A stretch of 64,000 bases of DNA, from NCBI RefSeq assembly GCF_030013595.1, contig NZ_CP122771.1. One strand, 5' to 3'. Made by a program: the position numbers and the translations under genes. The stretch is from Escherichia coli. Its GTDB lineage: Bacteria; Pseudomonadota; Gammaproteobacteria; Enterobacterales; Enterobacteriaceae. The notes under the pieces are model-generated. The model had not been told where the DNA came from, searched no databases, and saw only the letters and a program-made list of their open reading frames with translations. Position 1 is the first letter of the stretch. Each line of letters opens with the position of its first letter. Of the stretch, positions 39,554 to 59,947 are shown piece by piece.

Positions 39554-39978
39554 GTATGGCTGATAATCGTAAGTGCTCTTTTTATATTTATCCGGAACGA
39601 AATGCAGCTGATCGGGTGGCTGACAGGTTTCTTGAAAAATTGCCTCAGAAAGAACGTGGTCGGGCAATGCGGGCCATGATGTTGTGTGGTGCTGCATTGA
39701 TGAAGCAGGATGAACGATTGCCGTTCCTGATAGCTGAATTCCTGACAGACAGCACGTCTATGCAGGATATTCAACGAATTATCAGTAGTACGCTACCACA
39801 ACAGGAAAATGGTGAAGTCGTTCGTTTGCTGGAGGCATTTCTGCAGTCTGCTGGTAATAATGCAAAAGCGATCCTGCCTGCGGTTGATTCTGCTACGCAA
39901 GAAATATCTGCTCCAGTCGATCAGAATCTCCTGGAAACAAGAAACAACATTAAGAACTTGTTTCCGGATGATGAATAA
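39550..39978 (+). CDS. stbB: StbB/ParR partition adaptor
   Basis: 142 aa overlapping stbA stop; similar organisation to R1 ParR. Confidence 0.8.
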   Translation: MSMADNRKCSFYIYPERNAADRVADRFLEKLPQKERGRAMRAMMLCGAALMKQDERLPFLIAEFLTDSTSMQDIQRIISSTLPQQENGEVVRLLEAFLQSAGNNAKAILPAVDSATQEISAPVDQNLLETRNNIKNLFPDDE

Positions 39979-40014
39979 GAACTGAACTCTGTTAAAGGAC
40001 GCTGTTGCGTCCTT

Positions 40015-40378
40015 TTTTCTTTTCCGACAAAGGATGTCGCCGGGCTCCTCTTTTTACTGCGCCGGCTGACGCGGCGCGGCAGGAACGCTGCCTGTGGTCA
40101 GTATCCCGCGTCCGGCCGGGCACGGGACGGGCGCTTTTACCGCTCCCGGCTGGCGTCGGTGGCAGTGTACGCCAGCCCGTCGCCCTTTTCTGATGAACGC
40201 CCTTCAAGCCGCTTTCGCGGCATATCCTCGCCGTCAAACAGACGACGGCTGCGGTATTCCACGGTCGGCCTGACCCGTTATCGGACGCGGTGAACAGCCC
40301 ACAGGCCGCGGGGAACGGGCGCCACAGGGGCGCCCTCCCGGTGCTCTCTGCTGAAGCAGAAGTGAGAGGAGAATTCCC
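40015..40378 (+). repeat. Leading-region direct repeat family B, copy 1 (about 360 bp, includes RBS of downstream gene)
   Basis: Near-identical to 41338-41687; begins after stbB terminator hairpin; ends at ATG of 40379 ORF. Confidence 0.85.
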
Positions 40379-41305
40379 ATGCCAAACTGGTGCTCAAATC
40401 GTATGCATTTTTCTGGTGAACCGGCACAGATTGCTGAGATTAAACGACTGGCCAGCGGTGCAGTCACACCGTTTTATCGCCGCGCCACAAATGAAGGTAT
40501 TCAGCTGTTTCTGGCCGGAAGTGCCGGACTTCTGCAGACCACTGAAGATGTGCAGTTTGAACCGTGCCCCGGAGTGACGGCTGCCGGACGTGGTGTTGTA
40601 TCGCCGGAGAATATCGCGTTCACCTGCTGGCTGACACACCTGCAGAACGGTGTGCTACTGGATGAACAAAACTGCCTGATGCTGCATGAACTCTGGCTGC
40701 AGAGTGGTACTGGCCAGCGTCGCTGGGAAGGATTACCGGATGAGGTCAGGGAAACCATCACCGTGCATTTCACCGCCAAAAGAGGTGACTGGTGTGGCTT
40801 CTGGAGTAACGAGGATGTATCGGTGTGGTGGAACCGTCTGTGTGACAATGTACTGCCGGAAAAAACCATGCCGTTTGACCTGCTGACGGTTCTGCCCACC
40901 CGCCTGGATGTTGAAGTGAATGGCTTTAACGGTGGTGTTCTGAATGGTGTTCCTTCTGCGTATCACTGGTATACGGAACAGTATGGCGTGAAGTGGCCTG
41001 TGGGGTATGAGGTGAATATCAGCCGTCAGGGAGAAAACTTCATTCAGGTGGATTTCGACACGCCGTGGTGTCAGCCGGAAAGCAACGTTGTTGCAGAATT
41101 AAGCCGCCGTTTCGGCTGCACGCTGGAGCACTGGTACGCCGAACAGGGCTGCAATTTCTGTGGCTGGCAGTTGTATGAGCGCGGAGAGCTCGTTGATGTG
41201 CTGTGGGGGGAACTGGAATGGTCTTCCCCGACAGATGACGATGAGCTGCCGGAAGTCACCGGACCTGCGTGGATAGTCGACAAGGTGGCGCATTATGGCG
41301 GATGA
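40379..41305 (+). CDS. Conserved leading-region hypothetical protein
   Basis: 308-aa ORF immediately downstream of repeat B1. Confidence 0.6.
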   Translation: MPNWCSNRMHFSGEPAQIAEIKRLASGAVTPFYRRATNEGIQLFLAGSAGLLQTTEDVQFEPCPGVTAAGRGVVSPENIAFTCWLTHLQNGVLLDEQNCLMLHELWLQSGTGQRRWEGLPDEVRETITVHFTAKRGDWCGFWSNEDVSVWWNRLCDNVLPEKTMPFDLLTVLPTRLDVEVNGFNGGVLNGVPSAYHWYTEQYGVKWPVGYEVNISRQGENFIQVDFDTPWCQPESNVVAELSRRFGCTLEHWYAEQGCNFCGWQLYERGELVDVLWGELEWSSPTDDDELPEVTGPAWIVDKVAHYGG

Positions 41306-41337
41306 AGTATGACGGAGACGGGCGGGCAACCGCCCGT

Positions 41338-41687
41338 TTCTTTTCCGGTAAAGGATGTCGCCGTGCTCCTCTTTTTACTGCGCCGGCTGACGCGGCGCGG
41401 CATAAACGCTGCCTGTGGTCAGTGTCCCGCGTCCGGCGGGCACGGGACGGACGCTTTTACCGCTCCCGGCTGGCGTCAGTGACAGTGTACGCCAGCCCGT
41501 CGCCCTTTCTGATGAACGCCCTTCAAGCCGCTTTCGCGGCATAGCCTTGCCGTCAAACAGACGACGGCTGCGGTATTCCACGGTCGGCCTGACCCGTTAC
41601 CGGACGCGGTGAACAGCCCACAGGCCGCGGGGAACGGGCACCACAGGGGTGCCCTCCCGGTGCCCTCTGTAAGAGAAGGAGGCTTTT
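41338..41687 (+). repeat. Leading-region direct repeat family B, copy 2
   Basis: Near-identical to 40015-40378; ends at ATG of methyltransferase gene. Confidence 0.85.
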
Positions 41688-42371
41688 ATGTCCCGTTTTA
41701 TCCTGGGTGACTGCGTGCGAGTTATGGCCACGTTTCCGGACAATGCTGTCGATTTCATCCTCACCGACCCGCCGTATCTCGTCGGTTTCCGTGACCGTTC
41801 CGGGCGCACCATTGCCGGTGACGTTAACGATGACTGGCTGCAACCTGCCAGTAATGAGATGTACCGCGTACTCAAAAAAGACGCGTTAATGGTGAGCTTC
41901 TATGGCTGGAACCGCGTCGATCGCTTTATGGCCGCCTGGAAAAATGCGGGATTCAGCGTGGTTGGCCACCTGGTGTTTACCAAAACCTACACATCGAAGG
42001 CCGCATATGTGGGCTATCGCCACGAATGCGCCTACATCCTGGCAAAAGGACGTCCGGCGCTGCCTCAGAAGCCATTGCCCGACGTGCTGGGCTGGAAATA
42101 TTCAGGCAACCGCCATCACCCGACGGAAAAGCCTGTTACCAGCCTGCAACCGCTCATTGAGAGCTTCACACATCCGAACGCGATTGTGCTGGACCCGTTT
42201 GCAGGCAGCGGCTCAACATGCGTCGCCGCCCTCCAGTCCGGACGCCGGTATATCGGTATCGAGCTGCTTGAACAGTATCACCGTGCCGGACAGCAACGAC
42301 TGGCCGCCGTGCAACGGGCCATGCAGCAGGGGGCCGCGAATGATAACTGGTTTGAACCGGAGGCGGCGTAA
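41688..42371 (+). CDS. Orphan DNA methyltransferase (beta-class N6A/N4C)
   Basis: 227 aa; DPPY near N-terminus and FAGSGST near C-terminus; no adjacent restriction endonuclease. Confidence 0.85.
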   Translation: MSRFILGDCVRVMATFPDNAVDFILTDPPYLVGFRDRSGRTIAGDVNDDWLQPASNEMYRVLKKDALMVSFYGWNRVDRFMAAWKNAGFSVVGHLVFTKTYTSKAAYVGYRHECAYILAKGRPALPQKPLPDVLGWKYSGNRHHPTEKPVTSLQPLIESFTHPNAIVLDPFAGSGSTCVAALQSGRRYIGIELLEQYHRAGQQRLAAVQRAMQQGAANDNWFEPEAA

Positions 42372-42593
42372 ATGAACTATGCCGGACACGAAAAACTTCG
42401 CGCCGAAGTGGCGGAGGTGGCCAACACCATGTGTGACCTTCGGGCCAGGCTGAACGATATGGAGCATCGCTGTCGCTTTGATTCCGATGTGCTTGTTGAA
42501 CGCCTGACACGCCAGACGCTGTATCGCGCCAATCGCCTGTTCATGGAGGCATATACCGAAATTCTGGAACTGGATTCCTGCTTCAAAGATTGA
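42372..42593 (+). CDS. Hypothetical small protein
   Basis: 73-aa ORF start-overlapping MTase stop. Confidence 0.4.
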   Translation: MNYAGHEKLRAEVAEVANTMCDLRARLNDMEHRCRFDSDVLVERLTRQTLYRANRLFMEAYTEILELDSCFKD

Positions 42594-42603
42594 GGAGAGA
42601 GAG

Positions 42604-43039
42604 TATGTACGGAACATGCGAAACGCTGTGCCGGGAGCTGGCAGCAAAGTATCCGGGAGACACGCCACTGATGCTGGTTATCTGGTCTCCGGAAGATATT
42701 CAGGCACTGGCTGACGGTATGGAAATTTCTCTGACCGATCATGAAATCAGGACCGTCCTGGCGCGCATGGAGGACATCCCGGAAGACCAGCGGACTGAAT
42801 CCGGTATTTCTTCCGCCGCGGTGATGGAGATTATCAGCAACGTGAGCGAAAACCGCCAGGTGACCGTCCCTGCTGAACTGCTGGCGTCCCTGATTCAGAC
42901 CGCTGAACAGGCACTGTGGAAACGTGAGTGGGCCGCCCGTGATAACGGCCTCGCCGTCCCGGAATGCGTTACCCGCCGTCAGGCGGTGGTTAATCAGGCC
43001 CGCACCCTGCTGAAAAACAACACACACGAAAACAACTGA
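42604..43039 (+). CDS. Hypothetical protein, paralog of 44754-45176
   Basis: ATG at 42604 ([12 protein letters not shown]...); shares RQVTVPA-containing region with 44754 ORF. Confidence 0.5.
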
Positions 43040-43089
43040 TGTTATCGCCGCCTGCCCTGCGGGCGGCGATACAGGGAGAACGCTTAATC

Positions 43090-43869
43090 ATGAACGAAAA
43101 CAGCACGCTGAACGCACTGATTTGTCGTCACGCCCGTAACCTGCTGCTGGCGCAGGGCTGGCCGGAGGAGACGGATGTTGATCAGCGAGATCCACAGAAC
43201 TATCCGGGCTGGATCAGCATTTACGTGCGGCTGGATGCGCCCCGGCTGGCGACGTTACTTATCAACCGTCACGGCGGCGTACTGCCGCCGCTCCTGGCCT
43301 CCGCCATTCAGAGACTGACCGGAACCGGGGCGGAACTGGTACTGTCCGGCAGTCAGTGGCAGTCGCTGCCGGTACTTCCGGCAGACGGAACGCAGGTGTC
43401 TTTCCCGTATGCCGGAGAATGGCTGACCGAAGACGAAATCAGGGCTGTTCTTGATGCGGTGCACGATGCGGTACGAAGCATCTGTTACCAGGTGGCAGAA
43501 GATGCGCGGCGTATCCGTGCGGCGCTGACCACCACCGGTCAGACGTTGCTGACCCGCCAGACGCGCCGCTTTCGCCTGGTCGTGAAGGAAAGCGATCACC
43601 CCTGCTGGCTCGATGAAGATGACGAAAACCTGCCCGTGGTGCTCGATGCCATCGTGAACCGGGGAGCACGTTTTTCGTCGGTGGAAATGTATCTGGTCAG
43701 TGAGTGTATTGAGCATATCCTGTCCAGTGGGCTGGCCTGCGATGTGCTGCGTATACCGGATGAACCGCCCCGCCGCTGGTTTGACCGTGGTGTTCTGCGG
43801 GAAGTTGTCCGGGAAGCCCGGGCCGAAATCCGCAGCATGGCGGATGCCCTGACAAAAATCAGGGGCTGA
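43090..43869 (+). CDS. Hypothetical protein
   Basis: 260-aa ORF from ATG 43090. Confidence 0.5.
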
Positions 43870-44281
43870 TGATGGCGGGGAAAATCCCCGCCTTTTTCCT
43901 GCCGGTCCCCGGACAGAGCACAAAGGAAGTCGCCGCCGGCTCCGCTTTACCCGGCCATGCAGGCATGGCCTTGTGGGTTTTCAGTTATGTGGCCACAGTG
44001 TCGTGTGCGGGCTGTGCCGTGCCTCCATCTTAGCCGGGCTGGCGTTGATGCAAGGGTACGCTTCGCCGCTGCGGTCACCCGGTCCCTCCTTCCCGTCTGC
44101 CGTGATTTTCCGGTCGTTCACCCGCTCAGATTTCGCGGTCTCACCCTCCAACTCCCGCCAGCCGTGTGCGTCAGGCTGCGGCTTCCCTTGCGCCCTGTGC
44201 ATCCCCGCCTTATCGCCCGGCTTTTATGGAGGCACGGCACCGCCCGGTGTCGCGGAATATGTGAACAACGGAGGAAATCCC

Positions 44282-44707
44282 ATGCAGTATGCAAAATCTG
44301 TCATTCTGAACGTTGAAGAGTGCGACCGTCTGTCTTTTCTGCCTTACCTGTTTGGCAACGATTTTCTGTATGCCGAGGCATCTGTGTACGCGCTGGCGAA
44401 AAAAATGATGCCGGAATATGAAGGCGGATTCTGGCACTTCATCCGCCTGCCGGACGGTGGCGGTTACATGATGCCGGATGGCGACCGTTTTCATCTGGTC
44501 AACGGTGAAAACTGGTTTGACCGTACGGTCAGCGCCGATGCCGCAGGCATCATTCTGACCTCCCTTGTGATTAACCGCCAGTTGTGGCTGTACCACGACA
44601 GCGGGGATGCGGGACTGACACACCTGTACCGGATGCGCGATGCGCAGTTGTGGAGCCACATCGAATTTCACCCCGAATGTAACGCGATTTACGCGGCACT
44701 GGACTGA
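44282..44707 (+). CDS. ardB: ArdB/KlcA-like antirestriction protein
   Basis: 141 aa starting [33 protein letters not shown]; recognised as ArdB/KlcA family from memory. Confidence 0.75.
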
Positions 44708-44753
44708 TTAACGGACGGGGCGGCAATGCCGTCCCTGTAAAGGCGACGAGAAC

Positions 44754-45176
44754 ATGTACTGTACTGTTAAAGAAATTATCCGCGAAGTGCTGGATACAGA
44801 CGTGCCGGACAGTGAATGCGTTTTTGCCGTGGTGCTGACCCGTGGGGATGTGCGTCACATAGCCCAGGACTGGAACCTGTCAGACGATGAGCTGGAAACC
44901 GTCATGCAGCGGCTGGACGATGCCTTTGAGCATGGTGCGGATGTCAGCGTTGTTCACGACGTTGTTCGTGAACTGATGGAAGAAAAGCGCGCCAGCCGTC
45001 AGGTGACAGTCCCGGCGGTGATGCTGGAAAAAGTGATGGCGCTGGCAGGCAGTGAAATGAAGCGCCTGTATGCCGTCGGGAGTGAGAACGGGGGCGACGG
45101 TGACGCATTCGTCAGGGAAGAACGCGAAGCAATGGACGTTGTGTTACAGGCGCTGGACGGGGAGCACATGTCATGA
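44754..45176 (+). CDS. Hypothetical protein, paralog of 42604-43039
   Basis: 140-aa ORF; shared RQVTVPA motif and acidic profile. Confidence 0.5.
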   Translation: MYCTVKEIIREVLDTDVPDSECVFAVVLTRGDVRHIAQDWNLSDDELETVMQRLDDAFEHGADVSVVHDVVRELMEEKRASRQVTVPAVMLEKVMALAGSEMKRLYAVGSENGGDGDAFVREEREAMDVVLQALDGEHMS

Positions 45177-45364
45177 ATATCAGCACAGAAACCCGCGAAA
45201 TTCTGCGTAATTACAGGGCCGTGATTAATGCACGACGTCGTGAGATGGGGCAGAAACCGCTCACCACCGCGCAGGTTGTTGATGAAATCTGCGATTTTGT
45301 GGCGAATCAGCAGGCGGTTTTCCTCGGTGGTCACTACATCCTGCAGGGTAACAGAAACAGATGA
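45173..45364 (+). CDS. Hypothetical small protein
   Basis: 63-aa ORF overlapping stop of upstream gene. Confidence 0.35.
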   Translation: MNISTETREILRNYRAVINARRREMGQKPLTTAQVVDEICDFVANQQAVFLGGHYILQGNRNR

Positions 45365-45592
45365 TACAGAGGCAGGCGGTGGAGGCCGCCTGTCAGCCCG
45401 CGCGAAAACCCCTGGCAGGCTGGCGCCTGCCGGAAGGGAAGCGGGCCACGCTGGCGCGTCGCCCGTTACCCTTCCCGTTTGTGATGTGTCCGGAATGTTT
45501 TTTTCTGATGGTATGACCCTGTTCCTGTTGTTGTTGTTGTTCTTTTCTCTGCTGCCCTGATTCTGACTACTGCAGTGTTGTCCTGTCTGCCT

Positions 45593-46165
45593 GCGCACCT
45601 TCGGCTCCCGGCTGCCTGGCGGCATCCGGTCGTCAGGCCCGACTCCGACAGGCAGCTGCTGGCGCACCCGCCAGTCTCCGCCGAACCCGCTGGCGCGGTT
45701 TCGGGCTGTCGCTACGGTCCGATGCGTGAAAACCCCGGGCTTGCAGCGACCGTTCCGGTCGCGCCACCCTTGTCGCGCCGTGGCCTGCGCTCCCGGCATC
45801 CCGGCAAAAGGCCGCCGGGATGTAAGGCGCAACGCCGTTTCGCGCACGCGCTCTCCGTCGTTGCGGCGGGTCCCTGCTCATTGCCTGCCGGGTGCCACAC
45901 ACCCGTATGAGTCCCTGTCGCCGGGGGCTGATACAGCCACAACCTGCCGCACTGACTGTCCAGGGTAAATGAACAGCCCACAAAATTTTTTACCCAAAAC
46001 CCGGTAAAAAATTTTGCGTTCTGCCCGGGACAGGTGCGTCAGGCCGTGGCAGTGATGCCCCTTGCGGCGAAGGTTCTCAAACGGGTGAAGTTCATACCAC
46101 AGGGAATACAGCAGCAGGTTCCCGCGAAACGTCAAAACCGCGGCTCCCGAAACTCAACGGGTGAT
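45593..46165 (+). repeat. Frpo-like leading-region repeat, copy 1 (hairpin 45979-46018)
   Basis: About 570 bp GC-rich unit also at 49012-49465 and 59340-59925; 14-bp perfect stem caaaattttttacc/ggtaaaaaattttg. Confidence 0.8.
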
Positions 46166-46395
46166 GTTCTTTAAAAATCAGGATTTATTTCAGGCTCCGG
46201 CAATATGCATTTATTTGTTCTGTCAGTCATCCGGCTGGCAGGTAATGAGAACGCAGGAACAGAAGGAGGAAAACACCGGAGAACGTCAGACGCAGATATG
46301 AAAAAAGCAGGTCAGGGACCTGCTTAATCCACACCGCAGAGACTGCACGAACAGTCTTTACGGTTTCATTAATTAACGTCATAAGAGGCTAAATT

Positions 46396-46626
46396 ATGAC
46401 AGTAAGTATTGTTTCACCTTCCGCAGCGGCTGTAAAGCCCCGCCGTCATCCCCGTTTCAGACGCGAAGACATCCCCGCGCCGGAAATTGACCCCGTGCTG
46501 AAAGCCTTCGGGCGACACATTGCCCGGAGTTTTCACCGGGGGCGTGGTGTACACATCCCCGCCATGAAAAACACGACCTTCGGGCAGGTGCTCCGCACAC
46601 TCGAACTGAAACGCGCTTTTAACTGA
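46396..46626 (+). CDS. Hypothetical small protein
   Basis: 76-aa ORF downstream of Frpo-like copy 1. Confidence 0.4.
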   Translation: MTVSIVSPSAAAVKPRRHPRFRREDIPAPEIDPVLKAFGRHIARSFHRGRGVHIPAMKNTTFGQVLRTLELKRAFN

Positions 46627-46677
46627 TGAGGTGAGCCGCCCCGCGAGGGGCGGCAACAGACGGAAGGAGAACATTTT

Positions 46678-48039
46678 ATGACATTAGCAGCAATCACCAT
46701 GACCGCCCCGGAAGCCGCCAGCCCTGTGCAGATGTACCGCGCGACCTACTCACCGGATGACAACAAACTGCGCCTGTATGCCGTGTCACGTCTTGACCCG
46801 GAGACGTATAAAAAAGTGCATGATGCCGGTTTCCGCTGGGCACCAAAACAGGAGCTGTTTGTCGCGCTAGCCTGGACACCGGGCCGGGAAGACGTGCTCC
46901 TCTCACTTGCCGGAGAGATTGAGGATGAAGACAGCACGCTCGCTGAACGTCAGGAAGCACGGGCGGAGCGGTTTACCGGATACAGCGGAAAGCGGGCCAG
47001 TGAATCCGCACAGGCACTTGATGAAGTGGAAAGACTGGCCGCGATGATCCCGCCCGGTCAGCCCATTCTTGTGGGGCATCACAGCGAACGCCGCACCCGT
47101 CGTGATGCGCAGCGTATTGAAAACGGCATGAAACGAGCAGTGATGCTCTTTGAACGTGCGGAATACTGGGAAGAGCGGGCGCGGTCGGCACGGCTTCACG
47201 CGAAGTATAAAGAACGTCCGGACGTTCGCTGGCGTCGCATCAAAAAAATCGAAGCTGATTTGCGCAAGGCTGAAAAGACCATCGCACAGTCGCAGAAATA
47301 TCTGACGATGTGGCGGGCTGAATCGCTGGATCTGAATATGGCAAAATTCATCAGCAGTTATGACCGTATCAGTGCCTGTTTCCCGCTGGATACGTATCCG
47401 CGCCCGGCAGAAAAAAGCCAGTATGAAGGGAGCCGGTCGTTATGGTCGGCCCTGGATGATGACATCATCACCACGGAGCAGGCCCGCGAAATTGCGATCC
47501 GCTGTCATGAACGGCAGATTCAGCATCAACAACGCTGGGTTAACCACTATCAGAACCGCCTGATCTATGAGCGTACCATGCTGGACGAAAGCGGCGGCGT
47601 GGTTACCCGGACACAGGATTTTGAGCCGGGCGGACAGGTTTTCAGCCGGGGCGAGTGGCTGACCATCATCCGTGTGAACAAAAGCAACGGGGCGGTGAGT
47701 TCAGTCACAACGCCGAATTACAGTTTCCTCGGGTACAGCGGCACGATGAAAGTGACGCCCGATCGCATCACGGACTACAAAGCACCATCGGCAGAAGAGG
47801 CTGCCGTCGCCAGCCAGGCCGCGAAGCGTCCGCCGGTAGTCAACTATCCGGGGGAAGGTTTCCGGGAAATGACAAAGGCACAGTGGGCCGCCCTGCCCCG
47901 GGACTGTAAGGCCGTGCGCAGTGTGGCAGAAGCAGAAGACCACGGGGCATACCGCTACCGCCGCACAATGGACAATAATTTCCGTCTGGTGAATGTGTAT
48001 ATCACCGACATGAAAATTACGGAAATCCCACAGAAATAA
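46678..48039 (+). CDS. Conserved leading-region hypothetical protein
   Basis: 453-aa ORF with GGAGAA RBS. Confidence 0.6.
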   Translation: MTLAAITMTAPEAASPVQMYRATYSPDDNKLRLYAVSRLDPETYKKVHDAGFRWAPKQELFVALAWTPGREDVLLSLAGEIEDEDSTLAERQEARAERFTGYSGKRASESAQALDEVERLAAMIPPGQPILVGHHSERRTRRDAQRIENGMKRAVMLFERAEYWEERARSARLHAKYKERPDVRWRRIKKIEADLRKAEKTIAQSQKYLTMWRAESLDLNMAKFISSYDRISACFPLDTYPRPAEKSQYEGSRSLWSALDDDIITTEQAREIAIRCHERQIQHQQRWVNHYQNRLIYERTMLDESGGVVTRTQDFEPGGQVFSRGEWLTIIRVNKSNGAVSSVTTPNYSFLGYSGTMKVTPDRITDYKAPSAEEAAVASQAAKRPPVVNYPGEGFREMTKAQWAALPRDCKAVRSVAEAEDHGAYRYRRTMDNNFRLVNVYITDMKITEIPQK

Positions 48040-48085
48040 GGTATATCCCCCCGGGAAATCCCCGGGGGATGACGGAGATAATGAC

Positions 48086-48649
48086 ATGCACAGTCAGTTA
48101 AGAGAACGTATCCGGCTGATGCGCGCAAGGCTGGATAACGCCGCGCCGGTTGCTGAAATCCGGGCTGAATCTCAGCTTTTTGTGACTCCTGCCCCGGTCT
48201 GTGATCGCCTGGTGACGCTGGCGGAGATCAGCAACCGTGATCACATTCTGGAACCCTCTGCCGGCACCGGGGCCATACTGCGGGCGATTCGGGATACCGC
48301 GCCGGGGGCCATGTGTGATGCGGTGGAAATCAACAGCGGGCTGGTCCGGTATCTGCGGGAAAATTTTAACGGTGTCAGGGTTCAGTGTGGCGACTTCATG
48401 GAATGGCAGCCGGTGCAGTATTACAGCCGGGTTATCATGAATCCGCCGTTCAGCCACGGGCAGGATATCCGGCATATCCTGCGGGCCTTTTCCCTGTTGC
48501 GTCCGGGTGGCGTGCTGGTCGCCGTCTGTCTCAACGGACCACGCCAGCAGGAGAAGCTGTTGCCGTTTTCTGACGTCCGCGAGGAGCTGCCGCGCGGCAC
48601 GTTTGCTTATACCCGTGTTCCGACGATGATTATTCGTCTGCGGGCCTGA
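48086..48649 (+). CDS. Small orphan N6-adenine DNA methyltransferase-like protein
   Basis: 187 aa; SAM-binding EPSAGTG followed by NPPF catalytic motif. Confidence 0.75.
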   Translation: MHSQLRERIRLMRARLDNAAPVAEIRAESQLFVTPAPVCDRLVTLAEISNRDHILEPSAGTGAILRAIRDTAPGAMCDAVEINSGLVRYLRENFNGVRVQCGDFMEWQPVQYYSRVIMNPPFSHGQDIRHILRAFSLLRPGGVLVAVCLNGPRQQEKLLPFSDVREELPRGTFAYTRVPTMIIRLRA

Positions 48650-48830
48650 AGACGCCGGGCAGGCGGGAGGATAAATGCCTGTCTGTCCGCGCCGGGAAAA
48701 GACCGCGCGCCGGTGGCGCTGAAAGGGGCCGCGCTGACGCGCCGCCCCTTTCATTACGCGGACGTTCTGACGGGGGCTTCTGTCTTTTCAGACCTGTCAT
48801 TTGCCTGTTACTGATGATGTTGTTGTTCCT

Positions 48831-48866
48831 GCTACTGCTACTGCTACTGCTACTGCTACTGCTACT
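48831..48866. repeat. Hexanucleotide microsatellite (gctact)x6
   Basis: Direct reading; related (gtt)x5 run at 45523-45542 in the equivalent position before Frpo-like copy 1. Confidence 0.85.
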
Positions 48867-49011
48867 GTTCTTCTTTTTTCTGATGCTCTCATTACTGTCT
48901 GTTTTGTTGTTCTCCTGCTTATGCCTTTTCCGGGCGTCCCCCTGGCGGGGCGGGCTGTCGTGAACGGAGCCAGCGAAGCTGTCTCCGCCCTGGCGGGCTT
49001 CCATCCCTGAC

Positions 49012-49465
49012 GCCAAACCCCCTGGCTTGCAGCGACCGTTCCGGTCGCGCCGCCTCTGTCGCGCCGTGACCTGCGCTCCCGGCATCCCGGCAAAAGGCCG
49101 CCGGGATGTGAGGGGCAACGCCGTTTCGCGCACGCGCTCTTCGTCGTTGCGGCGGGTGCCTGCCCGTTGTTGTATCCGGTGCCCTGCACCCGTTTAAGCC
49201 CCTGTCGCCGGGGGCAAAGACAGCCACAACCGTCTCCGCCAGTCCAGGGGTGAAATGCACATCCCACAAAAGTTTTTGCCCAAAAGCCGGCAAAAACTTT
49301 TGTGGTCTGCCCCCGGACAGTCGTTTCCGGCCGTGGCAGTGATGCCCCTTGCGGCGAAGGTTCTCAAACGGGTGATGGTTAATACCGGAGGGAACAAACG
49401 GCAGGTCCCCGCAAAACGTCAAAACCGCGGCTCCCGAAACTCAACGGGTGATGGGGGCTGAAAAC
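49012..49465 (+). repeat. Frpo-like leading-region repeat, copy 2 (hairpin 49264-49305), immediately upstream of ssb
   Basis: Perfect 17-bp stem ccacaaaagtttttgcc/ggcaaaaacttttgtgg; unit ends at ssb RBS. Confidence 0.8.
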
Positions 49466-49486
49466 ATCAACAGAAGGAGACACATC

Positions 49487-50017
49487 ATGGCAGTTCGTGG
49501 AATTAACAAGGTCATTCTTGTCGGTCGCCTGGGAAAAGATCCGGAAGTCCGTTACATCCCCAACGGGGGCGCAGTGGCAAACCTGCAGGTGGCCACGTCA
49601 GAAAGCTGGCGTGACAAACAGACGGGGGAGATGCGGGAGCAGACGGAATGGCATCGCGTGGTGTTGTTCGGCAAGCTCGCGGAAGTGGCTGGTGAATATT
49701 TGCGTAAGGGTGCGCAGGTCTACATCGAGGGGCAACTCCGTACCCGTAGCTGGGACGACAACAACGGCGTCACCCGTTACATCACTGAAATCCTTGTTAA
49801 AAACACGGGCACCATGCAGATGCTGGGACGTGCCGCAGGTACTCAGACTCAGCCGGAAGAGGCGCAACAGTTCAGCGGTCAGCCTCAGCCGGAATCACAG
49901 CCGGAACCGAAAAAAGGTGGCGCGAAAACGAAAGGCCGTGGACGTAAGGCCGCGCAGCCGGAGCCTCAGCAGCCGTCTGAACCCGCGTATGACTTCGATG
50001 ACGACATTCCGTTCTAA
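49487..50017 (+). CDS. ssb: Plasmid single-stranded DNA-binding protein
   Basis: [25 protein letters not shown]-fold N-terminus; Gly/Gln/Pro-rich tail ending DDDIPF. Confidence 0.95.
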
Positions 50018-50066
50018 CGAAAGACAGTGACAACCGCCCCGTCCAGTGCGGGGCATCACCGGAGAT

Positions 50067-50306
50067 ATGAGGATGAGCGAATATTTCAGAATATTTCAGG
50101 GGCTGCCTGACGGCTCCTTTACCCGCGAACAGGCTGAAGCCGTTGCCGCACAGTACCGGAATGTCTTTATCGAGGATGATCAGGGAACGCATTTTCGCCT
50201 GGTTGTCCGCAATAACAGTGGCCTGGTCTGGCGTACCTGGAATTTTGAGGACGGTGCCGGGTACTGGATGAACCATGTCATCCGGAATTTCGGCATTCTT
50301 AAGTAA
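50067..50306 (+). CDS. Hypothetical small protein
   Basis: About 80-aa ORF downstream of ssb; start approximate. Confidence 0.5.
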
Positions 50307-50369
50307 GAGAGGTGCCGGACGGGAACGCGTCCGGCAGACATACAACCATCCCGGTCAAAGGAGAAATAT

Positions 50370-52328
50370 ATGTCAGTTACAGAGTCTAAGACAAAAACGG
50401 AGCGTAAATCCAGCCGTAAACCTGCAAAAACGCAGGAAACAGTCCTGTCTGCCCTGCTGGCGCAGACGGAGGAAGTGAGCGTGCCGCTGGCCTCACTGAT
50501 TAAATCACCGCTGAATGTGCGCACGGTGCCGTATTCTGCGGAGTCCGTCAGCGAACTGGCGGACTCCATTAAAGGTGTCGGCCTGTTACAGAATCTGGTT
50601 GTTCATGCCCTGCCAGGTGACCGTTACGGTGTCGCCGCAGGCGGTCGCCGACTGGCAGCACTCAACATGCTGGCAGAGCGCAACATCCTTCCGGCTGACT
50701 GGCCTGTACGCGTGAAGGTCATTCCGCAGGAGCTGGCGACTGCCGCATCGATGACCGAGAACGGTCAGCGTCGGGATATGCACCCTGCCGAACAGATTGC
50801 CGGATTCCGCGCAATGGCGCAGGAAGGCAAAACACCTGCACAAATCGGTGATTTGCTGGGCTATTCACCCCGCCACGTTCAGCGAATGCTGAAACTGGCT
50901 GACCTTGCGCCTGTCATCCTCGATGCGCTGGCAGAAGACCGCATCACCACCGAACACTGTCAGGCGCTGGCGCTGGAGAACGACACCGCGCGTCAGGTGC
51001 AGGTGTTTGAAGCCGCCTGTCAGTCGGGATGGGGCGGTAAACCGGAAGTACAGACCATTCGTCGTCTGGTGACCGAAAGTGAAGTGGCGGTGGCGGGGAA
51101 CAGTAAATTCCGCTTCGTGGGGGCTGATGCCTTCTCGCCAGACGAACTGCGCACCGATTTGTTCAGCGACGACGAAGGTGGCTATGTGGACTGCGTGGCG
51201 CTCGATGCCGCCCTGCTGGAAAAACTCCAGGCTGTCGCAGAGTTCCTTCGGGAAGCCGAAGGCTGGGAATGGTGCGCCGGACGCATGGAGCCTGTCGGTG
51301 AGTGCCGTGAGGATGCCGGAACATACCGCTGTCTGCCGGAGCCGGAAGCGGTGCTGACGGAGGCGGAAGAAGAACGTCTGAACGAACTGATGACGCGTTA
51401 CGACGCGCCGGAAAACCAGTGTGAGGAATCTGACCTGCTGGAAGCAGAAATGAAGCTGATGCGCTGCATGGCGAAGGTCAGGGCGTGGACGCCGGAGATG
51501 CGTGCCGGAGGTGGAGTGGTGGTGTCCTGGCGTTATGGCAACGTGTGTGTCCAGCGTGGTGTGCAGTTGCGCAGTGAGGATGACGTGGCTGACGACGCTG
51601 ACCGTACGGAACAGGTGCAGGAGAAAGCGTCAGTGGAGGAAATCAGTCTGCCACTGCTGACGAAAATGTCTTCCGAACGCACGCTGGCAGTCCAGGCAGC
51701 ACTGATGCAGCAACCGGACAAATCTCTGGCACTGCTGGCATGGACGCTCTGCCTGAATGTGTTTGGCAGCGGAGCGTACAGTAAACCAGCACAAATCAGC
51801 CTGGAATGTAAACATTATTCGCTGACCAGCGATGCGCCATCGGGGAAGGAAGGTGCCGCATTCATGGCGCTGATGGCAGAAAAAGCCCGTCTTGCTGCCC
51901 TGTTACCGGAGGGATGGTCACGGGACATGACGACATTCCTGTCACTCAGTCAGGAGGTGCTGTTATCCCTGCTCAGTTTCTGCACCGCATGCAGCCTTAA
52001 CGGTGTCCAGACCCGTGAGTGTGGTCACACGTCACGCAGTCCGCTTGACACGCTGGAAACCGCCATCGGCTTTCACATGCGAGACTGGTGGCAGCCGACA
52101 AAAGCAAACTTCTTCGGACACCTGAAAAAGCCGCAGATTATCGCAGCCCTGAATGATGCCGGACTGTCCGGTGCCGCACGGGATGCAGAGAAGATGAAGA
52201 AAGGTGATGCGGCTGAACATGCAGAGCACCATATGAAAGACAACCGCTGGGTGCCTGGCTGGATGTGTGCACCACGTCCACAGACGGATACCACTGAACG
52301 CACCGATAACCTGGCTGATGCCGCCTGA
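50370..52328 (+). CDS. ParB-like nuclease domain protein
   Basis: 652 aa; N-terminal ParB/Srx-like box (VHALPGDRYGVAAGGRRLAAL). Confidence 0.8.
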   Translation: MSVTESKTKTERKSSRKPAKTQETVLSALLAQTEEVSVPLASLIKSPLNVRTVPYSAESVSELADSIKGVGLLQNLVVHALPGDRYGVAAGGRRLAALNMLAERNILPADWPVRVKVIPQELATAASMTENGQRRDMHPAEQIAGFRAMAQEGKTPAQIGDLLGYSPRHVQRMLKLADLAPVILDALAEDRITTEHCQALALENDTARQVQVFEAACQSGWGGKPEVQTIRRLVTESEVAVAGNSKFRFVGADAFSPDELRTDLFSDDEGGYVDCVALDAALLEKLQAVAEFLREAEGWEWCAGRMEPVGECREDAGTYRCLPEPEAVLTEAEEERLNELMTRYDAPENQCEESDLLEAEMKLMRCMAKVRAWTPEMRAGGGVVVSWRYGNVCVQRGVQLRSEDDVADDADRTEQVQEKASVEEISLPLLTKMSSERTLAVQAALMQQPDKSLALLAWTLCLNVFGSGAYSKPAQISLECKHYSLTSDAPSGKEGAAFMALMAEKARLAALLPEGWSRDMTTFLSLSQEVLLSLLSFCTACSLNGVQTRECGHTSRSPLDTLETAIGFHMRDWWQPTKANFFGHLKKPQIIAALNDAGLSGAARDAEKMKKGDAAEHAEHHMKDNRWVPGWMCAPRPQTDTTERTDNLADAA

Positions 52329-52382
52329 TGAACAACCACACCGCCCCGCCGGAGACGGGGCGGCAGCAAGGGAGATACCGTG

Positions 52383-52817
52383 ATGAAAACTGAACTGACC
52401 CTGAATGTATTACAGACCATGAGTGCACAGGAATATGAAGATATCCGGGCAGCCGGAAGTGATGAACGTCGTGAGCTGACACACGCCGTGATGCGGGAAC
52501 TGGATGCGCCGGACAACTGGACGATGAACGGCGAGTACGGCAGCGAGTTCGGCGGCTTTTTCCCCGTCCAGGTCCGCTTCACGCCTGCCCACGAACGTTT
52601 TCACCTGGCGTTATGTTCACCGGGCGATGTCTCTCAGGTCTGGGTGCTGGTTCTGGTGAATGCCGGTGGTGAGCCGTTTGCGGTGGTTCAGGTGCAGCGG
52701 CGGTTTGTACCGGAAGCTGTCAGCCATTCACTGGCACTGGCGGCGTCACTGGATGGGCAGGGGTACAGCGTTAACGACATCATCCATATCCTGATGGCGG
52801 AAGGAGGTCAGGCATGA
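52383..52817 (+). CDS. psiB: PsiB, plasmid SOS inhibition protein
   Basis: Starts [13 protein letters not shown], matching F PsiB. Confidence 0.9.
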
Positions 52818-53533
52818 GCGCACGTTCACAGGCACTGGTTCCCCTCAGCGCAGAGCAACAGGCCGCATGGCGGGCGGTGGCGGAGACGGAAAAACGCCGC
52901 CATCAGGGAAACTCGCTGGCGGAATATCCGTATGCGGGGGCGTTTTTCCGCTGTCTGAACGGAAGCCGCAGGATATCGCTGTCTGACCTGCGATTTTTCA
53001 TGCCGTCCCTGACCGCAGAAGAACTGCACGGCAACCGTCTTCAGTGGCTGTATGCCATCGATGTGCTGATTGAAACACAGGGCGAGGTCTGCCTCCTTCC
53101 CCTTCCCGGTGATGCAGCAGAGCGGCTGTTCCCGTCGGTGCGGTTCCGTGTCAGGGAACGCAGTCGCCATAAATCCGCGCTGGTCATGCAGAAGTACAGC
53201 CGCCAGCAGGCACGGGAGGCAGAGCAGAAAGCCCGTGCGTACCAGGCGCTGGTTGCTCAGGCTGAAATCGAACTGGCATTCCATTCGCCGGAGACGGTCG
53301 GAAGCTGGCATGCCCGCTGGAGTGACCGGGTGGCGGAGCATGACCTGGAAACGCTGTTCTGGCAGTGGGGTGAGCGTTTTCCGTCACTGGCCGGAATGGA
53401 ACGCTGGCAGTGGCAGGATATGCCGTTCTGGCAGGTCATCGCAGAGGCTGGTATGGCGGCAAGGGTGGTCGGTCATGCTGTTCGTGAGATGGAGCGGTGG
53501 ATGGTGCCGAACAAACTCCGGGAGGCAGCGTGA
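52814..53533 (+). CDS. psiA: PsiA
   Basis: 239-aa ORF overlapping psiB stop; matches F PsiA. Confidence 0.9.
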
Positions 53534-53566
53534 TGCGTAAGCGGCTCGCCAGAACCGTATTGATAT

Positions 53567-55138
53567 TTACTGAGAGGTCAGATCAACTTTCCAGGGCAAC
53601 AGATCGCGTACCCGGTTTGCCGGCCAATCCTGGATATGCTCAATGACGTAACGCAGCCATTTTTCTGGTTCCACATTGTTCAGACGGCATGTGCCGATCA
53701 GCGAGTACAACACCGCCGCATGTTCGCCACCGCTGTCGGAACCCGCGAAGAGCCAGTTTTTCCGGCCTACGGCCACTCCCCGTAAGGCGTTCTCTGCGAT
53801 GTTGTTGTCGATTTCCACCCAGCCATTACTGCAGTACACGTTCAGGGCCTCCCACTGTTTCAGCAGGTATGCGAACGCTTTTGCCGTATCCGAGTGACGC
53901 GACAGTGTTTTCATCTGTTCCTGTATCCAGTCATACAGTGACTGCATCAGTGGAGCCGCTCTGGCTTTTCTTGCTGCCAGACGCTGTTCTGCTGAACATC
54001 CCCGGACTTCTGCCTCGATGACATACAGTTCACCGATACGCTGCAGGGCTTCCGTGGTGATGTCGGTTGGCACTCTTGCATGCACATCGTGGATTTTTCT
54101 CCGGGCATGGGCCATACACGCGGCTTCCGTTATTCTGCCGGATTCGTATAACGCCCGGTAACCACCGTAAGCATCTGCCTGAAGCACACCGCTGTAACCG
54201 GCCAGGTGATTCTGTGGATGGATACCTTTCCGGTCCGGGCTGTACGCGAACCAGACCGCCGGGGGCATCTGTGAACCGGCGTTACGGTCATCACGGACAT
54301 AGACCCACAGCCGGGCAGTTCTTGTTTTACCACTGCCCGGCTCCTGGACCGGAACGGGGATATCATCCGCATGGACTTTACCGGGCATCAGCACATACTG
54401 GCGCAGCACGTCATACAGCGGCTCCAGCAGTTCAGCAACGGCACCGGTCCAGCGCCCCAGCGTGGCGCGGCTCAGTTCCACGCCCTGACGAAGGTATATT
54501 TCTGACTGGCGGTATAACGGCAGATGGTCTGCATACTTCCCGGTGACGATATGAGCCAGAAGCCCCGCTCCGGCATAACTGCGTGCAATGGGTTTTGAAG
54601 GTACTGGTGCCTGCACGATATGGTCGCACCGGCAACAGGCCAGTTTCGGACGTTGTGTTTCGATAACCTTAAAAGCGCTGCTGATAAGCTCCAGTTGCTC
54701 TGACACATCACACCCCAGAGGACTGAGGTCACCACCACAGGCCGGGCAGCATTCCTCTTCCGGCCGGATGACCCGGGTTTCACGGGGAAGTGAGGCCGGT
54801 AACGGCTTACGGGCTGAAGACTGGCGCAGGGCGGATGGCAGTACCGGGTCATATTGCTCATCCAGCGTTTCCGCCATTTCTTCCTGAAGTGCGCTGATTC
54901 GCTCCTGGGCTTCCTGTATCTGCCGTTCGGTTTTAGCGCGAAGTTTTTCTGAGCTTTTACCGAACTGCATGCGCTGCAGTTTCGCAACCAGCGCCTTCAG
55001 CCGGTTGATTTCGGAAGCATAAGCCGCCACCCGCTGTGAGAGCAGGCGGTTGTATTTCGCCATCTGGCGGATGGTGTCCTGTTGCGTCTGCAACAGTGCC
55101 CGCAGGCGGGCATTCTCATGAGCAAGTGAGGTGTCCAT
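53567..55138 (-). CDS. IS66-family transposase (OrfC)
   Basis: 523 aa with N-terminal coiled coil, CxxC...CxxC zinc motif and DDE-type core. Confidence 0.9.
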
Positions 55139-55157
55139 ATCCTCACTTTACAACGGG

Positions 55158-55505
55158 TTATATGCGGATGCCAGCGCGTTCCGTTCGTTTCGGGTGCTTC
55201 CAGTCGATGCCTTCGAGAAGCATGGACAACTGAGCCGGAGTAAGGTGAACCTTTCCATCGCGGGTGACCGGCCAGACGAAGCGGCCCCGCTCCAGGCGTT
55301 TGGTGAAGAGGCACAGTCCGTCACTGTCAGCCCACAGCACTTTTATCTGGTCACCCCGGCGTCCGCGGAAGATGAACAGATGCCCGGAGAACGGGTCATC
55401 CTTCAGGACGTTCTGAACTTTTGAGGCCAGGCCGTTAAAGCCATTTCGCATATCGGTGATACCGGCAACCAGCCAGATACGCGAACCGGCAGGGAGAGAT
55501 ATCAT
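55158..55505 (-). CDS. IS66 OrfB (TnpB-like accessory protein)
   Basis: 115-aa ORF with the conserved IS66 OrfB-like N-terminus. Confidence 0.85.
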   Translation of the reverse strand: MISLPAGSRIWLVAGITDMRNGFNGLASKVQNVLKDDPFSGHLFIFRGRRGDQIKVLWADSDGLCLFTKRLERGRFVWPVTRDGKVHLTPAQLSMLLEGIDWKHPKRTERAGIRI

Positions 55506-59339: not shown

Positions 59340-59925
59340 GCGCACCTTCGGCTCCCGGCTGCCTGGCGGCATCCGGTCGTCAGGCCCGACTCCGACAGGC
59401 AGCTGCTGGCGCACCTGCCAGTCTCCGCCGAACCCGCTGGCGCGGTTTCGGGCTGTCGCTACGGTCCGATGCGTGAAAACCCCGGGCTTGCAGCGACCGT
59501 TCCGGTCGCGCCGCCTCTGTCGCGCCGTGGCCTGCGCTCCCGGCATCCCGGCAAAAGGCCGCCGGGATGTAAGGCGCAACGCCGTTTCGCAAACCGCGCT
59601 TCACGTCGTTGCGGCGGGTCCCTGCCCGTTGTTGTGTCCGGTGCCATTCACCTGTTTAAGCCCCTGTCGCCGGGGGCATAGACAGCCACAACCGTCTCCG
59701 CCAGTCCAGGGGTGAAATGCACATCCCGCAAAACTTTTTGCCCAGAAGCAGGCAAAAACTTTTGCGGTCTGCCCCCGGACAGTCGTTTCCGGCCGTGGCA
59801 GTGATGCCCCATGCGGCGAAGGTTCTCAAACAGGTGATGGTGAATACCGGAGGGAACAAAAGGCAGGTCCCCGCAAAACGTCAAAACCGCGGCTCCCGAA
59901 ACTCAACAGATGATGGGGGCTGAAA
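59340..59925 (+). repeat. Frpo-like leading-region repeat, copy 3 (hairpin 59726-59767)
   Basis: Stem ccgcaaaactttttgcc/ggcaaaaacttttgcgg; unit ends at RBS of 59948 ORF. Confidence 0.8.
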
Positions 59926-59947
59926 ACCAGAGAGAGGAGAAAGCAGG

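Follow-up and report, generated by a model that had tools for sequence, protein, structure and literature searches.

The leading region of an Escherichia coli IncF plasmid: genes of the F/R100/pESBL type, single-strand promoters, and a putative two-subunit methyltransferase

The stretch of DNA analyzed here, referred to as the window, comprises 64,000 nucleotides of an E. coli plasmid. Positions 40379 to 53533 hold 17 genes, all of which are located on the + strand and all of which (17 of 17) have intact reading frames. The orthologous proteins are 86 to 98% identical in F and 65 to 98% identical in pESBL. At least 5,000 plasmid records match the region, the best among the matches listed being NZ_CP122686.1 (99.4%). 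An R100-type oriT nick-site sequence was found on the minus strand at positions 62063-62075, where it matches GTGTGGTGCTTTT exactly; it defines the transferred strand and places the nick at about 62065. The minus strand enters the recipient in the 5'-to-3' direction toward lower coordinates and is therefore the template for the + strand genes, as had been claimed in an earlier note on this DNA. The region is situated on the leading side of the nick, 8.5 to 21.7 kb downstream in the direction of transfer. We are highly confident that it represents the leading region of an IncF (MOBF/MPF_F) plasmid with early genes driven from promoters in single-stranded DNA.

Two elements that F lacks are inserted between psiA and oriT and make up 5 kb of the distance between the nick and the region. 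An IS66 element (53538-56240) lies directly 3' of psiA. The other insertion is a group II intron (about 56995-59339), which resides in the long repeat that precedes the core of the third Frpo. This third class 1 promoter copy, the equivalent of F Frpo1, is located outside 40379-53533 (59477..59927, minus strand), matches F Frpo1 with 97.9% identity over a length of 765 nt, and heads a 95-aa open reading frame (ORF; 59948-60235) and a DUF932 gene (60353-61174). The positions of the two insertions might suggest that the island has been partly disabled in this plasmid, either by them or by decay of genes, and now persists as a relic. Given the 17 intact reading frames, the fact that both insertions spare coding sequence and core hairpins, and the recurrence of the IS66-bearing configuration in several complete conjugative plasmids, we consider such a relic highly improbable.

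The genes named in the earlier note were all recovered on the + strand, at or close to the coordinates given there. The first gene (yubA, 40379..41305) encodes a DUF1281/Api92-like protein (PF06924, PF18406; PDB 2IJR Api92, E = 1e-49) that is 94% identical to the pESBL protein; the best match in F aligns with residues 1 to 162 only. The next gene (yubD, 41688..42371) encodes the beta-class N6-adenine DNA methyltransferase that had been recognized from its DPPY motif. The protein matches NCBIfam PRK13699 (E = 5e-149), is 96% identical to the F protein and, with 89% identity over 227 aa, is an orthologue of M.EcoGIX. Its motifs are intact, DPPY (motif IV) preceding FAGSGST (motif I), and its gene has a class 3 single-strand promoter upstream, as does that of M.EcoGIX. 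The latter enzyme forms m6A at SAY sites on single-stranded DNA; it methylates the DNA strand as it enters in single-stranded form and confers protection from restriction (Fomenkov et al. 2020, PMC7736820). Three further + strand genes follow, encoding YubE (42372..42593, PF27407), YubF (42605..43039, DUF1380), and YubG (43093..43869, no Pfam family), and a terminator-like hairpin is present 3' of yubG (43874-43892). For YubF, the start codon ATG at 42605 was preferred over TTG at 42590, as annotated homologues have 144 aa, a length in keeping with the former.

The antirestriction gene predicted in the earlier note encodes a KlcA/ArdB protein (YubI/yfgB, 44282..44707, + strand), which belongs to PF03230, matches the solved structures of KlcA (PDB 2KMG, E = 1.4e-17) and 2WJ9 (E = 3.6e-8), and is 94% identical to the F protein. 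By analogy, it would act as an inhibitor of type I restriction. In F, deletion of the ssp2 promoter, which controls yfgB, decreased transfer into an EcoKI recipient 5-fold, and the authors credit yfgB as the likely cause (bioRxiv 2026.01.09.698686). A mechanically called start at GTG 43973 was rejected in favor of the real start at 44282. Downstream on the + strand are yubJ (44754..45176), whose product shows a weak DUF1380 match and is apparently related to YubF, and a 63-aa ORF (45173..45364) that is 95% identical to ORFs of F and pESBL.

The distal genes, likewise on the + strand, encode plasmid SSB (49487..50017; PRK13732, E = 2e-107), YubL/YfjA (50073..50306; DUF905, PF06006; PDB 2HJJ YkfF, E = 9e-21), the ParB-like protein YfjB/HerB (YubM, 50370..52328), the SOS inhibitor PsiB (52380..52817; PRK13701, E = 8e-83), and PsiA (52814..53533; PRK13704, E = 1e-125); the three family matches uphold the previous naming of ssb, psiB, and psiA. 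The start at 50067 used before for YubL is an alternative ATG, and 50073 was used here. YfjB/HerB contains an N-terminal CTP-binding domain of the ParB/Spo0J/Noc type and a helix-turn-helix (ParB_N, HTH_ParB), matches Spo0J, ParB, and Noc structures, and is 94.6% identical to YfjB of F. It had been described as a ParB-like nuclease. The ParB-like part of this description is correct, and the nuclease label appears to be a misnomer: the report on the F orthologue describes a DNA clamp that binds CTP and reprograms transcription of the host, and nuclease activity is not mentioned in its abstract (PMC13370423). Most of the stretches previously left as uncharacterized now resolve into named ORFs, 42372-43869 into YubE, YubF, and YubG, 44754-45364 into YubJ and the 63-aa ORF, and 50067-50306 into YubL.

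About 3 kb of the span consists of noncoding repeats and not of ORFs (40016-40350, 41337-41669, 43870-44281, 45730-46166, and 48911-49465). Judged by their sequence, these long repeats between genes are single-stranded DNA promoters already published as class 1 (Frpo), class 2, and class 3. The intergenic regions are 89 to 98% identical to single-strand promoters of F or pESBL, and folding of the minus strand far exceeds that of shuffled controls, with z values from -4.3 to -8.4. A search of the + strand between 39900 and 53600 revealed no sigma-70 consensus promoter. ORFs that have been called inside repeats, e.g., YubC and a 68-aa ORF (49255-49461), fall within the hairpin promoters.

Specifically, the promoter of the methyltransferase operon is a class 3 hairpin (41337..41669, minus strand, z = -4.9). 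The intergenic region containing it (41306-41687) shares 97.6% identity over 377 nt with the sequence upstream of M.EcoGIX in pESBL, and the start site of that pESBL promoter was mapped by 5' RACE (Wen 2025, PMC12672017). An extra class 3 copy (40016..40350, minus strand, z = -6.6) precedes the DUF1281 gene; its sequence identity amounts to 95% with the copy at 41337-41669 and to 94% with the M.EcoGIX promoter of pESBL. Sequence comparison showed this copy to be absent from the corresponding position in F and pESBL, and the arrangement of stbB, repeat, and DUF1281 gene was found in at least 528 PLSDB records. The class 2 promoter upstream of klcA (43870..44281, minus strand, z = -4.3) is the homologue of F ssp2, with 97.5% identity to F and 96.6% to the region upstream of klcA in pESBL; in F, this element also acts as a roadblock to complementary-strand synthesis (bioRxiv 2026.01.09.698686). 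Two class 1 copies form direct repeats with a spacing of 3287 nt and share the same long minus-strand hairpin. The first (45730..46166, minus strand), 92.5% identical to F Frpo2, heads an operon of a 76-aa ORF, a DUF3560 gene, and a small methyltransferase gene. The second (48911..49465, minus strand, z = -8.4), upstream of ssb, is the Frpo2-equivalent promoter for the genes from ssb through psiA and is 89 to 92% identical to Frpo2 and Frpo1 of F. The class 1 stem is A/T-rich next to the loop and contains hexamer-like candidates, e.g., TTGAGA-N17-CATCAC, that are not confidently assignable. Frpo elements also prime DNA synthesis and roadblock it (PMC12672017, bioRxiv 2026.01.09.698686). Deletion of Frpo2, ssb, or psiB left the transfer of F between isogenic strains unaffected (PMC9849209), so that some leading-region functions are conditional.

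From DUF1281 to psiA, the genes follow one another as they do in the leading region of F (Manwaring et al. 1999; Couturier et al. 2023, PMC9849209), and F carries equivalents of Frpo1, Frpo2, and the promoters of classes 2 and 3 (89 to 98% identity) in the same position relative to oriT. Unlike the window, F lacks the module composed of the 76-aa ORF, the DUF3560 gene, and the small methyltransferase gene (about 46167-48861), has a single Frpo in place of the two found here, and is devoid of the class 3 copy before DUF1281 and of IS66 or a group II intron at this location. The IncI1 plasmid pESBL (PMC7736820, PMC12672017) is syntenic from DUF1281 to psiA, with a methyltransferase 89% identical to that of the window and class 2 and class 3 promoter regions that are 94 to 98% identical; it differs in its conjugation system (MOBP/MPF_I), in the presence of ardA and other genes beyond psiA, and in the absence of the DUF3560-methyltransferase module.

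Leading regions have been described as hotspots of anti-defense functions, with orphan methyltransferases, SSB, PsiB, and Frpo promoters, and anti-defense genes are statistically enriched in them (Samuel et al., Nature 2024, PMC11541004). The islands of that study follow the same concept, with antirestriction, anti-SOS, orphan methyltransferase, and SSB genes behind Frpo, and its Supplementary Table 1 lists DUF905, DUF1380, DUF1281, and DUF3560, families also present in the window. The region combines a position on the leading side of the nick and a transferred-strand template with known anti-defense genes (KlcA/ArdB, PsiB, PsiA, the M.EcoGIX-type methyltransferase, and SSB); it does not differ conceptually from these islands and is an instance of the most abundant enterobacterial type. 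Samuel et al. tested the importance of a leading-region position with an inserted anti-CRISPR gene (PMC11541004), and native genes and promoters of F and pESBL were tested in later work (PMC9849209, PMC12672017, bioRxiv 2026.01.09.698686). These studies reported that single-strand promoters bring about zygotic induction and that escape from restriction depends on KlcA/ArdB (Couturier 2023, PMC9849209; Wen 2025, PMC12672017; Fraikin 2026, bioRxiv 2026.01.09.698686). Because near-identical plasmids have already served to describe and test the early protective genes and the single-strand promoters, the region is a real but ordinary instance of the known F/R100/pESBL-type gene set. The earlier view of it as an anti-defense and establishment island read from the transferred strand agrees with the published experiments on the F and pESBL orthologues.

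For these orthologues, zygotic induction, the activity of M.EcoGIX, the contribution of KlcA/ArdB, and the function of HerB have been demonstrated in the literature, and by analogy the following course would be expected for the present plasmid with respect to methylation, protection, and the timing of expression. In the course of conjugation, the minus strand would be nicked at about 62065 and enter the recipient with its 5' end first, so that the region would arrive early as single-stranded DNA. Six hairpins (two class 3, one class 2, and three class 1) would then serve as promoters for host RNA polymerase, and six operons would be transcribed in a short burst before complementary-strand synthesis. 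The M.EcoGIX-type enzyme would form m6A at degenerate SAY sites of the entering strand and blunt restriction, KlcA/ArdB would block type I restriction, SSB would coat the single strand, and PsiB and PsiA would suppress SOS induction; YfjB/HerB would bind the host chromosome and lower the cost of plasmid acquisition. Upon conversion to double-stranded DNA, the hairpins would vanish and expression would stop.

The uncharacterized ORFs of the leading region were proposed as anti-defense candidates in the earlier note, as they had been by Samuel et al. (2024, PMC11541004). The enrichment of anti-defense genes in leading regions and the operons shared with M.EcoGIX and KlcA speak for that assignment and against another, according to which most of the uncharacterized ORFs (DUF1281, YubE, YubF, YubG, YubJ, the 63-aa and 76-aa ORFs, and YubL) serve other establishment tasks. 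These could be the handling of single-stranded DNA, complementary-strand synthesis, or compensation of fitness costs in the host. None of these ORFs matches a family of known function, the priming and roadblock activities of the Frpo elements point to tasks of this type, and YfjB/HerB, a former unknown of the same region that was recently characterized, proved to be a reprogrammer of the host (PMC13370423). We tentatively regard such other tasks as a real possibility, though as somewhat less likely than not.

The operon behind the first class 1 copy is absent from F and pESBL but present in at least 4,860 plasmid records, and no characterization of it was found in the literature searched. Its first gene (46396..46626, + strand) encodes a basic protein of 76 aa, for which family searches gave no match. 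The length of this ORF is conserved, and in a Klebsiella variant of the module, which is about 73% identical and retains the split arrangement and all three ORFs with many synonymous changes, 61 of the 76 residues are identical and 23 codon changes are synonymous. The second gene (R100 ydbA, 46678..48039, + strand) encodes a DUF3560 protein (PF12083 at residues 89 to 206), and the third (R100 ydcA, 48086..48649, + strand) a small class I SAM methyltransferase of 187 aa, which agrees with the small N6A methyltransferase-like protein with NPPF noted before. In 95 of 101 representatives of DUF3560 homologues, which have at least 560 aa, a C-terminal domain homologous to the small methyltransferase is present, nearly always with NPPF. 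By this homology, the DUF3560 protein is the N-terminal part of a DUF3560-methyltransferase protein that has been split in two. The block 46396-48039, formerly listed as uncharacterized, thus contains the 76-aa ORF and a DUF3560 protein that is the partner of a methyltransferase and not an independent unknown. Since most distant relatives consist of a single fused chain, the two proteins most likely form one two-subunit enzyme.

The AlphaFold2 model of the DUF3560 protein has a pLDDT of 93 and a pTM of 0.81. Structure comparison found no solved relative of its fold, and any role assigned to it is for this reason a guess. A model of the concatenated DUF3560-methyltransferase chain reached a pLDDT of 91 and a pTM of 0.72; it comes without a predicted-error map and does not by itself prove an interface. 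The small methyltransferase contains EPSAGTG followed by NPPF and consists of the catalytic domain only, ending with the Rossmann fold; no target-recognition domain was found in it. Its best solved relative is the catalytic domain of M.TaqI (E = 1.8e-6), of which only residues 22 to 164 align, and the top Foldseek matches include PacII, M.TaqI, and HsdM. Among 80 relatives, the motif I glycines, NPP, and one histidine do not vary, and the domain is also found embedded in giant phage proteins (PHROGs, E about 1e-32). With the gamma-class N6-adenine methyltransferases of the M.TaqI type, the protein shares the order of motif I before motif IV, the NPP(F/Y) catalytic loop, and the Rossmann fold; unlike them, it lacks the C-terminal target-recognition domain and is paired or fused with the 450-aa, helical and beta-rich DUF3560 protein. 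The enzyme is probably an N6-adenine DNA methyltransferase.

Alternatively, the two proteins might methylate host RNA or protein (rRNA, tRNA, or a translation factor) and transiently reprogram the host in the manner of HerB, which sets a precedent for a host-directed leading protein outside defense (PMC13370423). The missing target-recognition domain would fit such a substrate, as would the best NCBIfam matches (Erm, KsgA, and PrmC, all far below their cutoffs) and the Foldseek neighbors Trm11/TrmN, Dim1, ErmE, and PrmC, which appear alongside DNA methyltransferases. Against this stand the best solved sequence match, M.TaqI, with 22 to 25% identity in the structural alignment, the annotation of several matched PHROG families as DNA methyltransferases together with the occurrence of the domain inside giant phage proteins, and the genomic settings of fused relatives, namely the early region of a phage and an integrative element with RadC as a neighbor, in which DNA protection is usual. 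Overall, a host RNA or protein substrate appears rather unlikely, and less likely than the entering DNA.

Expression of the putative two-subunit enzyme may be gated twice, being switched on from single-stranded DNA via its own Frpo copy and switched off after complementary-strand synthesis via the antisense RNA AS-pc01. The latter (46302..46401, minus strand; Rfam RF02875, 98.9 bits at a gathering threshold of 79) spans the start codon of the 76-aa ORF together with its ribosome-binding site, and is accompanied by a sigma-70-like promoter (46436..46408) and a terminator-like hairpin (46325-46305); its stems are preserved by compensatory changes in the 73%-identical Klebsiella variant. AS-pc01 is transcribable only from the newly synthesized strand and probably silences the operon in the established plasmid. 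The operon would then be a further module of the same kind as those described above. Taken as a whole, a two-subunit methyltransferase in which the large DUF3560 partner replaces the usual target-recognition domain, which is doubly gated, and whose substrate is possibly the entering DNA has, in our estimation, about an even chance of being correct. Layered protection by two methyltransferases had been suggested for this region; a protective role is known for the M.EcoGIX-type enzyme only.

Leading regions matter because they decide whether resistance plasmids become established in defended hosts. The present instance adds nothing to the published picture as far as the genes and promoters studied on F and pESBL are concerned. 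The one useful lead is the DUF3560-methyltransferase module, which is very common and is missing from both of these models; as its two large genes appear to be halves of one enzyme, they should be deleted or expressed together. If the proposed reading of the module is true, the entering DNA would gain a second, mechanistically distinct protective methylation.

The 13.2-kb span at 40379-53533 was matched by at least 5000 plasmid records, the closest among the matches listed being NZ_CP122686.1 (ETEC E. coli, pig faeces; IncF, MOBF/MPF_F; 99.4%). The remainder of the window fits an F-type plasmid: it carries the tra operon on the plus strand (traI at 23372-28642), the CopA and repA region outside the span, parM/stbA-stbB (38573-39978) and, beyond the span, an IS66 element, hok/sok, a group II intron, a DUF932 gene, an SLT gene, traM, FinP and traJ. 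The R100-type nick sequence GTGTGGTGCTTTT has a single mismatch-free occurrence, at 62063-62075 on the minus strand, which identifies the minus strand as the transferred one. This strand enters the recipient 5' end first, proceeding towards lower coordinates, and is the template for the plus-strand genes, as the earlier note had claimed. In one related E. coli contig (L004, 1-383), a gene for a SEFIR/TIR-domain protein adjoins the partition genes stbA/stbB, immediately beyond the leading region.

[quoted passage not shown] The first methyltransferase (227 aa, 41688-42371) shows the β-class motif order, with DPPY before FAGSGST, and matches PRK13699 (E 5e-149); it shares 89% identity with M.EcoGIX of pESBL and 96% with its F counterpart. 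KlcA/ArdB (start at 44282) contains PF03230 and matched PDB 2KMG, while SSB, PsiB, and PsiA scored above the curated cut-offs of their NCBIfam models. The 652-residue ParB-like protein has ParB_N and HTH_ParB domains, shares 94.6% identity with YfjB of F, and is similar to Spo0J, ParB, and Noc, which are CTP-dependent clamps; the description "ParB-like nuclease" is a misnomer that goes back to an old Pfam domain name. In a 2026 preprint (PMC13370423), YfjB is renamed HerB and described as a DNA clamp that binds CTP and reprograms transcription in the host. The blocks previously considered uncharacterised resolve to YubE, YubF (DUF1380), YubG, YubJ, a 63-aa ORF, a 76-aa ORF, DUF3560, and YubL (DUF905), and a DUF1281 gene forms the left end of the region. 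With the exception of a three-gene operon described below, all proteins have orthologues in the model plasmids F (86-98% identity) and pESBL (65-98%). NCBIfam profiles gave no match for DUF1281, YubE/F/G, KlcA, the 63-aa and 76-aa ORFs, or DUF3560; for YubJ they gave nothing beyond a chance-level match to FabG2 (E 0.0013; 18 bits, where the cut-off is 339), and PHROGs returned only families of "unknown function" for the unknown ORFs. Searches of the literature turned up no functional study of DUF1380, DUF1281, DUF905, or the Yub names, and for DUF3560 they yielded incidental mentions only. At the right end, an IS66-family element (53538-56240; minus-strand ORFs at 53567-55138, 55158-55505, and 55505-56155) is inserted, relative to F, 5 nt past the psiA stop codon and thereby lies between the ssb-psiA operon and hok/sok (flm), located at ~56351.

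The idea of a dense anti-defence island is the central argument made by Samuel et al. (Nature 2024, PMC11541004), who named orphan methyltransferases, SSB, and Frpo promoters and listed the same DUF families as candidates, and Fomenkov et al. 2020 (PMC7736820) demonstrated protection by the first methyltransferase. The finding is therefore real, correctly read, and already known.

Long non-coding repeats make up ~3 kb of the span. Those preceding DUF1281 and the first methyltransferase are 95% identical to one another, the latter being 97.6% identical to the sequence upstream of M.EcoGIX in pESBL; the klcA upstream region shares 96.6-97.5% identity with its pESBL and F counterparts, and those that precede the 76-aa ORF, ssb, and the 95-aa ORF/DUF932 pair match Frpo2 and Frpo1 of F at 89-98% identity. 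Judged by this similarity, the repeats are predicted to be promoters: exactly these elements have been sorted into single-strand promoter classes 3, 2, and 1, with start sites mapped in pESBL (Wen et al. 2025, PMC12672017), and early expression in F requires Frpo1 and Frpo2 (Couturier et al. 2023, PMC9849209). A further effect of the class 2 element is to stall synthesis of the complementary strand, and deleting this element reduces transfer into hosts with restriction systems (Fraikin et al. 2026, bioRxiv 2026.01.09.698686). In the four regions scored, the minus strand folded far better than shuffled controls (z -4.3 to -8.4), and a fifth, upstream of the 76-aa ORF, formed the same hairpin on that strand. 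The -35/-10 hexamers could not be placed in the hairpin stems by eye or by a double-strand consensus scan. No plus-strand sigma-70 consensus promoter was found within 39900-53600, which is consistent with silence of the genes when double-stranded. A second copy of the class 3 promoter (40016-40350) precedes the DUF1281 gene, a position without such a copy in F and pESBL; at least 528 PLSDB records have the same arrangement, by which DUF1281 would become zygotically induced in plasmids of this lineage.

Short tandem repeats, (CTGCTA) x 6.5 at 48829-48867 and (TGT) x 5.3 at 45526-41, lie just upstream of class 1 promoters; the long minus-strand shadow ORFs to which they give rise (serine-rich or similar) are unlikely to be genes. 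A group II intron (56995-59339, minus strand; reverse transcriptase ORF at 57078-58745) is located in the long repeat, ~140 nt upstream of the third Frpo core, and in the related plasmid L003 a group II intron lies immediately upstream of ssb. Homing of such introns to Frpo hairpins is unsupported, as the L003 intron is unrelated in sequence and its site differs.

The plasmid departs from the model plasmids at 46167-48861, a segment lacking in both F and pESBL. Where F has one Frpo, two direct copies are present here at a spacing of 3287 nt and enclose an operon of the 76-aa ORF (46396-46626), DUF3560 (453 aa, 46678-48039), and a small methyltransferase of 187 aa (48086-48649). The operon is covered to at least 80% in at least 4860 PLSDB records, and in a Klebsiella variant with ~73% identity the three ORFs are intact despite abundant synonymous change. 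Host CRISPR systems target this part of the leading region, as seen from published K. pneumoniae spacers (PMC6965323 Table 3): GAGCAGGCACCCGCCGCAACGACGAAGAGCGC, annotated there as "intergenic, 2-4 hits per plasmid", is a near-exact match to the Frpo repeat at ~49157-49190 and at the equivalent position of the other class 1 repeats, and further spacers hit DUF3560 and SAM-methyltransferase genes.

Comparison with distant relatives shows DUF3560 and the small methyltransferase to be a single split protein. An exhaustive search among representatives clustered at 50% identity yielded 3922 DUF3560 relatives; of the best 150 of these, 101 are at least 560 aa long, and 95 of the 101 carry a C-terminal domain homologous to the small methyltransferase (E ~1e-17 to 1e-40 among the matches listed). 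These representatives were used for the fusion signal instead of the close-homologue search, in which the top 120 matches were all at least 67% identical; apparent fusions of DUF3560 with PsiA, PsiB, or transposases among close homologues were singleton chimeras that look like assembly artefacts and were disregarded. NPPF is present in 95 of 100 representatives with the methyltransferase domain. When 80 sequences were aligned, all of them shared the motif I glycines, the motif IV NPP, and one histidine, together with many arginines of the DUF3560 part. Fused forms are encoded next to RadC in an integrative element and within a phage early region. A small ORF upstream of a fused homologue proved unrelated to the 76-aa ORF and was rejected as its relative; the three-gene operon is hence not kept as a unit outside Enterobacterales.

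The predicted DUF3560 model is confident (pLDDT 93, pTM 0.81) and features an N-terminal α/β domain, a long helical bundle, and C-terminal β-rich domains; no solved structural relatives were found for it. The concatenated DUF3560-methyltransferase model (pLDDT 91, pTM 0.72) is suggestive, not decisive, of a defined arrangement of the two. By sequence, the small methyltransferase, which is devoid of a target-recognition domain, is nearest to the catalytic domain of M.TaqI, and by fold PacII, M.TaqI, and HsdM are nearest, with tRNA, rRNA, and protein amino-methyltransferases interleaved among the matches. The link between the two proteins was half-anticipated, since a structural hit had led Samuel et al. 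(Supplementary Table 1, PMC11541004) to label the DUF3560 family "Methyltransferase domain protein".

An antisense RNA, AS-pc01 (Rfam RF02875; 98.9 bits against a threshold of 79), was found at 46302-46401 on the minus strand, where it overlaps the translation start signals of the 76-aa ORF, the first gene of the operon: its 5' stem-loop can pair with both the AAGAGG ribosome-binding site and the ATG start codon. A promoter-like site (46436..46408) and a terminator-like hairpin (46325-46305) of its own lie on the minus strand, and its stems co-vary through compensatory changes in the Klebsiella variant. Because its template is the plus strand, AS-pc01 can be made only after complementary-strand synthesis, and it probably helps to silence the three-gene operon in established plasmids. 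Rfam revealed three more pHK01-type antisense RNAs on the minus strand of the tra/finO part, AS-pc02 (30264-30447), AS-traI (26221-26297), and AS-traG (16772-16857). The split DUF3560-methyltransferase operon with its putative double gating is the sole lead of modest novelty.
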